A DNA stretch of 29,701 nt from an uncultured bacterium (GTDB taxonomy: Bacteria; Edwardsbacteria; AC1; EtOH8). The number at the start of each line of letters is the position of its first letter. The stretch's first letter is position 1. This document shows positions 25,379 to 26,746 of the stretch, in pieces. The translations under genes were made by a program, and so were the position numbers. The stretch is taken from positions 1 through 29,701 of the forward strand of contig CALGNM010000404.1 in the NCBI GenBank assembly GCA_937958665.1, written 5' to 3'. The notes beneath the pieces are model-generated. The model saw nothing but the letters and a program-made list of their open reading frames with translations, ran no database searches and was not told the DNA's origin.

Positions 25379-26746
25379 TCAACCAATGTCCTCGATCAAC
25401 CGGTCCTCCAAAAACGGCCAGATTTCGATGATAGTCCCCGGCCGGGAATGGCCCTCCTCCCCCTCCGGGCCAGATGGCGGCTGGCGGTCAGGGCTCAGGG
25501 AGGCCACCCGGGTCAGGGCCGGGACCGGGGCCGCCGGCTCCTCAATCGGTTGAGGGGGCGGAGCCGCTTGGACCGGCGGCGTAGCCGGCCTCTCCGGAGC
25601 CCGGGGCGGCTCCGGAGTGTTGCCGGCGTTACGGGCCAGGGCCCTGACCGCCAATTCCAAATCGTCGGCCTTGTCCGGGTCGAACATCAGACTTTCAATC
25701 CGGGCGATCTGCTCCGGGCTGGCCTTGGGCGACAGCGGGCCGAACTCCTGCTGCAGGGCGATCAGCCGCTCGATGTTGGCGGTGTATTCCTGGTAGGCCT
25801 GGGTGACGATGGAGATGTCCTGCTCCAGTATCTTTTCGATGCCGGAGGTGTTGAAGCCCTTCATCCTCCAGATGAACAGCTTCTCCTTGTACTCCTGTCT
25901 GAGCTTGTCGGCATTCTGCTCCTCGTCGATCAGGGCGCTGACCTTGTGGTCCAGCCCGGAGAGAAAATCGCCGAACTCCCCGGACGGGCCCGGCCCGGGC
26001 TCCTCCGGGGCAGGAGCCGGCTCGGGTTGCTCCGGGGCCGACTCGGGGGCCTGGAGGGCCGGCAGGGCCTCGTCCACCACCGCCCGGGTCAGCGGCCCCT
26101 CGGCCAGCGAGGCGTAAAGCAGCACCTTGTTGAGGGCCCCCTCCAGCTCCCGGATGTTGGAGGGCACCCGGGAGGCGATCAGCAGGGCGATCTCGTCGCC
26201 CAGCTCCACCCCCCGGTCCCGGCTCTTGCGGGCCACGATCAGGCTTTTTTCCCCGGCCTCGATCTCCTTGAGCCCCACGATCAGCCCGCCCATCAGCCGG
26301 GACAGCAGCTTCTGGTCCAGGCTCTCCATCCTGTGGGGCGGGATGTCGGTGGTGGCGATGATCTGGCGGCCCGAGCCCACCATCCGGTCGAACAGGGGCA
26401 GCAGCCGGATCTGGACCTTGCGGTCCTGGAGCCCCAGGTGCAGGTCATCGAACAGCAGCAGGTCCGATTTCTCGGCGGCAATCAGGTCCTCCAGCGACAT
26501 CTGGCTGCCGTTGAGGAAGACGATGTTCCAATCCGGCTGGCGCCGGGCCGCGGCGTTACCCACCGCGTGGATCAGGTGGGTCTTGCCCATCCCCACCCCG
26601 CCGTGGATCACCAGGGGGTTGTAGACATTGCCCGGGTTCTCGGCCACTTTGCGGGCTGCGGCAAAGGCCAGCCGGTTGCTGGGCCCGGTGACGAAATTGT
26701 CGAACTGGTAAATGCTCTGCAGTATTTCCGGTGTGCGGTCGGCCAT
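25379..26746 (-). CDS. DnaA/Hda-like AAA+ ATPase lacking DnaA domains I, II and IV (not the replication initiator)
   Basis: YQFDNFVTGPSNRLAFAAA, GGVGMGKTHL, LLLFDD, LLSRL and SNIRELEGALNKV match DnaA domain III; no C-terminal DnaA HTH (RDHTTV-type motif); unrelated helical domain and Pro-rich linkers follow. Confidence 0.85.
   Translation of the reverse strand: MADRTPEILQSIYQFDNFVTGPSNRLAFAAARKVAENPGNVYNPLVIHGGVGMGKTHLIHAVGNAAARRQPDWNIVFLNGSQMSLEDLIAAEKSDLLLFDDLHLGLQDRKVQIRLLPLFDRMVGSGRQIIATTDIPPHRMESLDQKLLSRLMGGLIVGLKEIEAGEKSLIVARKSRDRGVELGDEIALLIASRVPSNIRELEGALNKVLLYASLAEGPLTRAVVDEALPALQAPESAPEQPEPAPAPEEPGPGPSGEFGDFLSGLDHKVSALIDEEQNADKLRQEYKEKLFIWRMKGFNTSGIEKILEQDISIVTQAYQEYTANIERLIALQQEFGPLSPKASPEQIARIESLMFDPDKADDLELAVRALARNAGNTPEPPRAPERPATPPVQAAPPPQPIEEPAAPVPALTRVASLSPDRQPPSGPEGEEGHSRPGTIIEIWPFLEDRLIEDIG

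Follow-up and report, generated by a model that had tools for sequence, protein, structure and literature searches.

What does a DnaA-type ATPase do directly behind the gene of a polarity GTPase? The question is raised by a contig of 29,701 nucleotides from an uncultured Edwardsbacteria bacterium (the whole stretch is called the window in the following), in which the gene for a paralog of DnaA domain III lies next to mglA, surrounded by genes for Roadblock, PATAN-TPR and Che proteins. Judged by its relatives, the paralog belongs to an undescribed family which combines a DnaA-type AAA+ domain with a helical domain of its own (here called MID) and an aromatic C-terminal end, and whose genes are followed downstream by a PATAN-TPR gene and then by cheR. 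According to the conserved gene order it is a stable part of a module in which MglA stands together with three Roadblock proteins, a pair of PATAN-TPR proteins and the Che pathway. The best reading, to which we give about equal weight for and against, is that the paralog works as a nucleotide-dependent adaptor within this MglA/Roadblock/PATAN/Che polarity module, with a build like that of RomR.

The gene and the elements of its ATPase domain are the following, where invariance refers to A1, an alignment of 25 family members with 49-74% identity.

25379..26746, minus strand: the whole gene, an open frame for the DnaA domain III paralog of 455 amino acids (AAA+, linker, MID, linker, tail).

26042..26725, minus strand: AAA+ domain of the DnaA domain III type, residues 8-235, from PF00308, TIGR00362, PDB and Foldseek matches.

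26579..26602, minus strand: Walker A motif, GGVGMGKT (K55) within GGVGMGKTHL, invariant in A1.

26462..26509, minus strand: shortened region of the initiator-specific motif, residues 80-95, with 12-13 residues fewer than DnaA, from alignments, spacing and model.

26444..26461, minus strand: Walker B motif, LLLFDD (D100, D101), invariant in A1.

26297..26302, minus strand: box VII arginine finger, S149-R150, invariant in A1, corresponding to R285 of Escherichia coli DnaA.

26138..26158, minus strand: sensor II (box VIII), NIRELEG within NIRELEGAL, with R199 invariant in A1 and corresponding to R334 of E. coli DnaA.

Pfam assigns residues 9-157 to Bac_DnaA (PF00308, E 1.1e-37), and the NCBIfam model for DnaA (TIGR00362) covers residues 8-235 with its positions 103-342 out of 437, which is domain III only; at 200.1 bits the protein stays below the equivalog cut-off of 343.9. 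The DnaA structures 8BTG/8BV3 in the PDB are matched with E 2e-53, and Foldseek finds 8BV3 with E 4e-17. Compared with domain III of DnaA from Bacillus subtilis (8BTG/8BV3), Thermotoga maritima (2Z4R) and Aquifex aeolicus (2HCB) the identity is 34-41%, and the paralog shares their AAA+ fold along with Walker A/B, sensor I and II and the arginine finger of box VII. K55 and D100/D101 align to K178 and D235/D236 of E. coli DnaA, and FDNF at residues 15-18 is invariant. About 120 columns of A1 are invariant or nearly so over the 25 homologs, 24 of which share a common start methionine, the sequence P0038 being without the first 29 residues. Read from these residues, the nucleotide site of the paralog is complete, and it includes the arginine finger which is expected to act in trans. 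A preliminary description, made from the letters of the window, had recognized a DnaA domain III core with its motifs in a protein that starts almost at this domain. PF00308, TIGR00362 and the invariance in A1 bear out the former, and the latter agrees with the 8 residues that precede domain III and with the missing DnaA_N match.

The initiator-specific motif of DnaA is a two-helix insert between beta2 and beta3 which serves the helical filament and the binding of single-stranded DNA (ssDNA). The spacing from the Walker A lysine to the Walker B aspartate is 45 residues in the paralog versus 57 in E. coli DnaA; the preliminary description had given 43 versus 55, the same difference of 12 residues. 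When the paralog is aligned with DnaA of B. subtilis (8BTG) or of E. coli, the deletion falls between beta2 and beta3, at the site of the motif, and the AlphaFold2 (AF2) model of the paralog has one short helix at this site (residues 85-92).

That the protein is without a DNA-binding domain IV had also been claimed, and Pfam, profile-profile and fold tests find no domain IV-like fold in the C-terminal half. Neither Bac_DnaA_C (PF08299) nor DnaA_N (PF11638) has a match in Pfam, even if the isolated C-terminal half is searched at E 10, which leaves Bac_DnaA as the only one of the three profiles matched, just as predicted. A comparison of the MID profile with the profile of DnaA domain IV by hhalign results in a probability of 0.13%, and fold searches of MID give no helix-turn-helix or domain IV match. 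MAFFT and HMMER do align two short stretches, GEFGDF..GLD and QQEFG, with the DnaA signature; with an HMMER domain of -1.7 bits and the hhalign value just mentioned, the C-terminal half was rejected as a degenerate domain IV. As far as its sequence can tell, the paralog is a DnaA derivative which has neither domain I nor domain IV and is without roughly half of the initiator-specific motif. Unlike DnaA, which has domains I, II and IV and a motif longer by 12-13 residues, it possesses MID, proline-rich linkers and an acidic tail, and its gene is situated in a signalling cluster while the canonical dnaA is found elsewhere.

In the genome of the window (G000) this canonical dnaA, whose existence had been expected, is split at contig ends, with domains I-II and the first part of domain III encoded at the end of contig C370 (L002 1171-1641) and domain IV on contig C77 (L098). 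Besides this genome, all of the twelve same-family relatives searched harbour the paralog, with 108-127 bits to PF00308, and eleven of them also a canonical DnaA with 230-250 bits; in the remaining one, G002, which is 66% complete, only a paralog-level match was found. Both proteins are present as well in G013, a genome of the same class.

Among known proteins Hda has to be considered next to DnaA. Like Hda/HdaA (5X06 from E. coli, 3BOS from Shewanella) the paralog is a DnaA-derived AAA+ protein that has no DNA-binding domains, a shortened initiator-specific motif and a retained arginine finger, and the deletion in E. coli Hda matches that of the paralog in size and place. Taken together with an identity of 37-41% to DnaA domain III, these features would suit an Hda-like regulator whose intact arginine finger inactivates DnaA-ATP, or which caps DnaA oligomers, so that replication would be coupled to the motility or chemosensory state. 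However, the paralog reaches only 89.2 bits with the Hda model TIGR03420 (equivalog cut-off 194.8), and its PDB match to Hda (E 3e-11) is far weaker than the one to DnaA (E 2e-53). Hda comprises about 230 amino acids and consists of the AAA+ domain only, whereas the paralog is twice as long and has a conserved MID and tail. A regular-expression scan of the 25 homologs found no conserved beta-clamp-binding motif of the QL[SP]LPL or QLxLF type, neither at the N-terminus, where Hda carries it, nor elsewhere, the only matches being located in the buried strand before Walker B. In a tree of DnaA-type AAA+ domains, which was a quick search and included one Hda, that of E. coli, this Hda stands apart, on a branch 6.7 substitutions per site long. 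The short paralogs fall together with the N-terminal modules found in the tandem relatives described below (SH-aLRT 86), the stem branch of the short paralogs being long (1.75 substitutions per site); their placement relative to the canonical DnaAs is left unsettled by this quick tree. Furthermore, the gene context differs from that of Hda, the neighbours in all 39 assessable loci being PATAN, Che, MglA or Roadblock genes (the scan had no replication-gene probe), and the arginine finger has been lost in several lineages of the family. An Hda-like role had been the alternative offered by the preliminary description; with the score below the cut-off, the missing clamp motif and the distance from E. 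coli Hda on the tree we consider it very improbable. On these comparisons, the paralog is neither an Hda nor a replication initiator. A reading as part of a defence system was also dropped, PADLOC having returned generic P-loop and TPR matches only.

The genes around the paralog have the following positions, given from upstream to downstream.

28315..29376, minus strand: TPR-linker-Roadblock protein (TPR_19, Robl_LC7).

27960..28301, minus strand: minimal Roadblock/LC7 protein of 113 amino acids (PF03259, E 7e-9).

27397..27963, minus strand: MglB-like Roadblock/LC7 protein of 188 amino acids with an acidic amphipathic C-terminal helix (PF03259).

26761..27354, minus strand: mglA, the cluster-specific copy, with 273 bits to structures of Myxococcus xanthus MglA; its stop lies 14 nt before the ATG of the paralog.

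23729..25348, minus strand: PATAN(DUF4388)-MshEN-TPR protein (Pfam, NCBIfam), 30 nt downstream of the paralog.

22924..23745, minus strand: cheR (Pfam CheR), with a 17-nt overlap with the PATAN-TPR gene.

22415..22909, minus strand: cheD (PF03975).

20669..21715, minus strand: cheB (PF01339, Response_reg).

The distance of 14 nt to mglA is the one given in the preliminary description. For the MglB-like gene the start at 27963 was assigned by hand from the translation, and it overlaps the upstream stop by 4 nt; the locus L003 has a matching 4-nt overlap at the start of this gene. In the PATAN-TPR protein downstream of the paralog NCBIfam predicts a c-di-GMP (cyclic di-GMP) motif of the MshEN type. 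At its upstream end (29407-29700, minus strand) the contig breaks off within a PATAN-TPR gene whose ortholog codes for 421 amino acids (72% identity to L003:5897-7159). Because of this, the seeming absence of cheA from the window is a limit of the assembly. Between cheD and cheB, at 21738-22385 on the minus strand, there is a low-GC open reading frame (ORF) of 215 amino acids which has no Pfam match. The same site contains no gene in L005 and L007 and a different gene of 253 amino acids in L004, and it looks like a variable insertion point.

The genome contains three mglA copies (C404, C223, C117), and so do 15 of the 16 family relatives searched. The copy beside the paralog shows 83-95% identity across the family, and the other two, which are located elsewhere, are about 60% identical to it. 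With eight strong matches to PilB/PilT-type ATPases and no flagellin match in the genome (94% completeness), type IV pili would therefore fit as the output of the cluster.

The arrangement is conserved far beyond Edwardsbacteria. The context sample consisted of nine loci obtained by exact protein look-up and of 40 species-representative loci found with MID patterns, the neighbours playing no part in the selection; the neighbourhood was scanned by phmmer with single-sequence probes from this cluster, ORF calling was crude, and the species are related. A PATAN-TPR gene follows directly downstream of the paralog in 39/39 assessable loci and is its steadiest neighbour. The second gene downstream is cheR in 35/35 loci, and cheD and cheB come after it. 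Directly upstream mglA was found in 28 of 36 loci and a Roadblock gene in six more (34/36), and the intergenic gaps are mostly in the range from -13 to +40 nt. This gene order is shared by Edwardsbacteria, TA06/UBP2, Zixibacteria, Stahlbacteria, WOR-3, Cloacimonadota and Gemmatimonadota, with the position of the paralog fixed in at least six phyla. In close relatives the full order reads cheY, cheA, cheC, a gene for a protein of about 900 amino acids, PATAN-TPR, TPR-Roadblock, two Roadblock genes, mglA and the DnaA-like gene, followed by PATAN-TPR, cheR, cheD, cheB, a TPR gene, cheW, two genes for methyl-accepting chemotaxis proteins (MCPs), a cheW-like gene and a Ser/Thr kinase gene. The protein of about 900 amino acids has no Pfam family; from Edwardsbacteria to Gemmatimonadota it is conserved, its gene lying between cheC and the cluster's first PATAN-TPR gene (L003 3031-5718; L005 2817-5498; L009 756-3464).

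The placement between the genes of a polarity GTPase and a PATAN-TPR protein suggests, at the level of gene order, that the paralog was recruited into motility signalling. The tie to the GTPase module which the preliminary description had proposed is upheld by the linkage across phyla, but the partner it had named is not the most constant one, this being the PATAN-TPR gene (39/39) and not mglA (28/36). In a survey of prokaryotic small GTPases PATAN was only occasionally a neighbour of mglA (PMC4316618).

The closeness of mglA raises the possibility that MglA itself is the direct partner, the paralog binding MglA-GTP or MglA-GDP as an effector, or regulating the nucleotide cycle of MglA in the manner of a guanine nucleotide exchange factor or by modulating a GTPase-activating protein. 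Where mglA lies immediately upstream (the 28 loci) the gap is often 5 nt or less or the genes overlap, and the adjoining mglA is a dedicated copy among three in this genome and in the 15 relatives. In addition, the tail of the paralog resembles the C-terminal helix of the MglB-like Roadblock protein, and the helix of MglB has been reported to bind MglA (PMC12719032). On the other side, at least three loci have PATAN beside or near the DnaA-like gene and no mglA detected adjacent to it (L057/L072 from WOR-3, the context of P0192, and L010), and in Stahlbacteria a Roadblock gene intervenes between mglA and the DnaA-like gene. A structure prediction of the paralog in complex with MglA (score 0.13, mark 0.32) counts neither for nor against binding. 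Altogether we regard MglA as a rather unlikely direct partner.

The family occurs in three forms. The short form with 444-497 amino acids, to which the paralog belongs, was found in Edwardsbacteria, TA06/UBP2 and Zixibacteria. A tandem form with the order DnaA-III, MID, DnaA-III, tail (570-870 amino acids, one protein of 1168) is present in Gemmatimonadota, WOR-3, Stahlbacteria and Cloacimonadota. A reduced form of about 393 amino acids, which overall resembles DnaA only weakly, retains the P-loop and, in most of these proteins, the arginine-finger pair, and has lost sensor II. We regard the tandem proteins as true relatives, which share with the paralog the N-terminal AAA+ domain, MID, the tail and the place between the mglA or Roadblock gene and the PATAN-TPR gene, and differ from it by a second DnaA-III module where the paralog has a proline-rich linker only. 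Since linker 2 of the short form stands at the position of this second module, a loss of the module from the short form is suggested by the alignment. All alignable modules of the family retain the Walker A lysine except the second modules at the three Stahlbacteria-type loci L068-L070, where it is arginine. Arginine finger and sensor II vary across the family outside the short form and Gemmatimonadota, which retain both. A tandem gene in a different setting is found in L010, a Gemmatimonadetes contig of 9 kb: this gene (P0042, 693 amino acids) is preceded by genes for a PATAN protein of 267 amino acids and a protein of 241 amino acids of no known kind, genes for an amino-acid kinase and a biotin carboxylase adjoin, and there are no che genes on the 9 kb.

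The three forms also bear on the initiator-specific motif. The spacing between Walker A and Walker B is 38-45 in most N-terminal modules of the family, while in the tandem forms of Gemmatimonadota both modules have a full-length motif with a spacing of 57-58. Because of these full-length modules the shortening has to be seen as lineage-specific; the loss claimed in the preliminary description stands for the paralog and fails as a trait of the family. The full-length motifs, along with the fact that DnaA domain III alone touches ssDNA in solved structures (3R8F is among the fold matches), could be taken for an AAA+ domain with ATP-dependent binding to ssDNA or to the nucleoid, which would position the polarity module much as ParA-like ATPases make use of the nucleoid. 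Such a DNA or nucleoid anchor appears improbable to us, as the motif is cut to a spacing of 38-45 in the paralog and most N-terminal modules, domain IV is absent, and linkers and tail are acidic.

A further possibility is that the gene is a decaying duplicate of dnaA without a function of its own, to which the long stem branch and the loss of domains could be related. The frame is intact, however, the approximately 120 near-invariant columns extend over 25 homologs, and the gene has been kept in the 12 same-family relatives and the genome of the window as well as at the same position in the phyla named above. This explanation is contradicted by conservation, and it is the only one that we exclude, its probability being close to nil.

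The C-terminal half of the paralog consists of four parts.

25979..26056, minus strand: linker 1, residues 231-256, with 35% proline and no basic residues (composition; pLDDT <50).

25628..25978, minus strand: MID, family-specific helical domain of about 115 amino acids, residues 257-373 (alignment A3, AF2).

25439..25627, minus strand: linker 2, residues 374-436, with 30% proline, variable in length and sequence (A1 columns 385-500, composition).

25382..25438, minus strand: acidic C-terminal tail, G-x-I-x-x-x-W-P-x-x-E-D-R-L-x-E-D-(F/I), with G437, W443 and R449 invariant in A1.

With respect to this half, the preliminary description was right in that no DNA-binding module is present. It is not featureless, however, and the conserved MID and tail had been overlooked, as had the relatives with tandem AAA+ modules. 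MID is kept from Edwardsbacteria to Gemmatimonadota (A3). Folded on A3 by AF2, it forms an all-helical bundle with a pLDDT of 87.6. Pfam has no family for MID, and Foldseek against the PDB gives nothing below E 2.7. The best match of a VIA-wide search, to spectrin-like rods (EbhA, EzrA) with Z 7.5, is within the noise for helical bundles. Fold searches of AFDB and Atlas bring up family members and Thermoplasmatota repeat proteins only, and the score of 0.77 from an Atlas feature search is to be taken as a lead only. A search with the MID profile in 1.84 billion representative proteins yielded 586 matches, including giant proteins of about 3100 amino acids with up to 27 tandem repeats (P0121, P0142, P0152); the source records of the giant repeat proteins name a Thermoplasmata archaeon, whose protein has a zinc ribbon at its C-terminus, and also a Methylacidiphilaceae bacterium. 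The repeat unit has about 105 amino acids with the core W-x3-G-(F/Y) and is not matched by any Pfam family. Because of these matches with their giant arrays, MID is, by profile similarity, one unit of a widespread and so far unnamed helical repeat.

Both linkers and the tail of the paralog are acidic, and a C-terminal end of the type aromatic-R-L/I-x-E/G-D/E-F/Y is common to the short, the tandem and the reduced form. The acidic amphipathic helix at the end of the MglB-like Roadblock protein (27397-27963, minus strand; …FNQAVEDALSQLFS) is similar in style to the tail of the paralog (…WPFLEDRLIEDIG), and the two could compete for one site. We have not adopted a reading of the tail as a CheR-docking pentapeptide, which is a weak possibility: the end L-I/M-E-D-F is without the tryptophan at position 2 of the E. 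coli receptor consensus xWxxF. The two MCPs of the cluster contain no pentapeptide.

How could such a protein work? The closest parallel in build is RomR from M. xanthus, which consists of a receiver domain, a linker rich in proline and an acidic C-terminal helix that docks by its W394 in the cleft of the Roadblock dimer of MglC (PMC12719032). The paralog likewise has an N-terminal switch domain and a long, disordered linker rich in proline, and its C-terminal helix is acidic and contains a key tryptophan. Three Roadblock genes are situated just upstream, and a binding to Roadblock proteins, described for the RomR helix, is presumed for that of the paralog. In contrast to the phospho-receiver of RomR, the switch of the paralog would be an ATP-binding AAA+ domain, and there is no homology between the two.

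In the mechanism that we propose for a nucleotide-dependent adaptor, binding of ATP would lead to head-to-tail self-association of the AAA+ domains. Since the tandem forms join two DnaA-III modules in one chain, a pair of such modules may be the working unit, covalent in the tandem relatives. The flexible proline-rich linker would then offer the C-terminal helix to another protein of the cluster. By analogy with the RomR helix and its W394 on MglC, the likeliest receptor would be a Roadblock dimer. Alternatively, the PATAN-TPR protein encoded directly downstream may receive the helix with its TPR domain. Acidic C-terminal peptides are known ligands of TPR domains, and this is the basis of the idea of a TPR receptor. 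Controlled by the Che pathway and c-di-GMP, the whole module would probably set the polarity of type IV pilus motility through MglA.

Several points weigh against the adaptor reading. The likeness to RomR is an analogy of architecture and not of descent. Cloacimonadota, WOR-3 and the forms of about 393 amino acids have other residues in place of the arginine finger, sensor II or both, and for this reason hydrolysis of ATP in trans is not a universal need of the family. Moreover, the linkage of the genes would be compatible with a role which also touches DNA or DnaA, and the evidence for the role of the family is of a comparative kind only.

DnaA-type AAA+ modules are known from the initiation of replication and its control, namely from DnaA, Hda and the more distant DnaC. 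Seen against this background the paralog would represent a new subfamily within the DnaA/Hda AAA+ clade, novel both in its architecture and in its functional setting. The genes of the family are annotated in public records as hypothetical, 'DnaA/Hda family protein', 'AAA family ATPase' or 'chromosomal replication initiator', and labels such as 'DnaA/Hda family' or 'chromosomal replication initiator' could mislead the calling of origins and of dnaA in metagenome-assembled genomes. Neither the MID repeat nor the acidic tail has a name so far, and both could be made into family models for annotation.

If the adaptor reading is true, a DnaA-type module has been recruited to motility and polarity signalling, of which the literature searched holds no description; full-text searches found no paper in which DnaA-like proteins are tied to MglA, to PATAN or to chemosensory clusters. 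The ATPase would then be a third nucleotide-binding component beside the GTPase MglA and the predicted c-di-GMP motif of the PATAN-MshEN protein. For the family as a whole we tentatively put forward, as a possibility short of an expectation, that the single, tandem and reduced DnaA-derived AAA+ proteins are a core and so far unrecognized part of MglA/Roadblock polarity switches in candidate phyla of the FCB group. They may take the role of RomR as an ATP-driven dimer or oligomer switch, which by its acidic tryptophan-containing helix would link the output of the Che pathway and c-di-GMP, the latter through the PATAN-MshEN-TPR protein, to the GTPase cycle of Roadblock and MglA.

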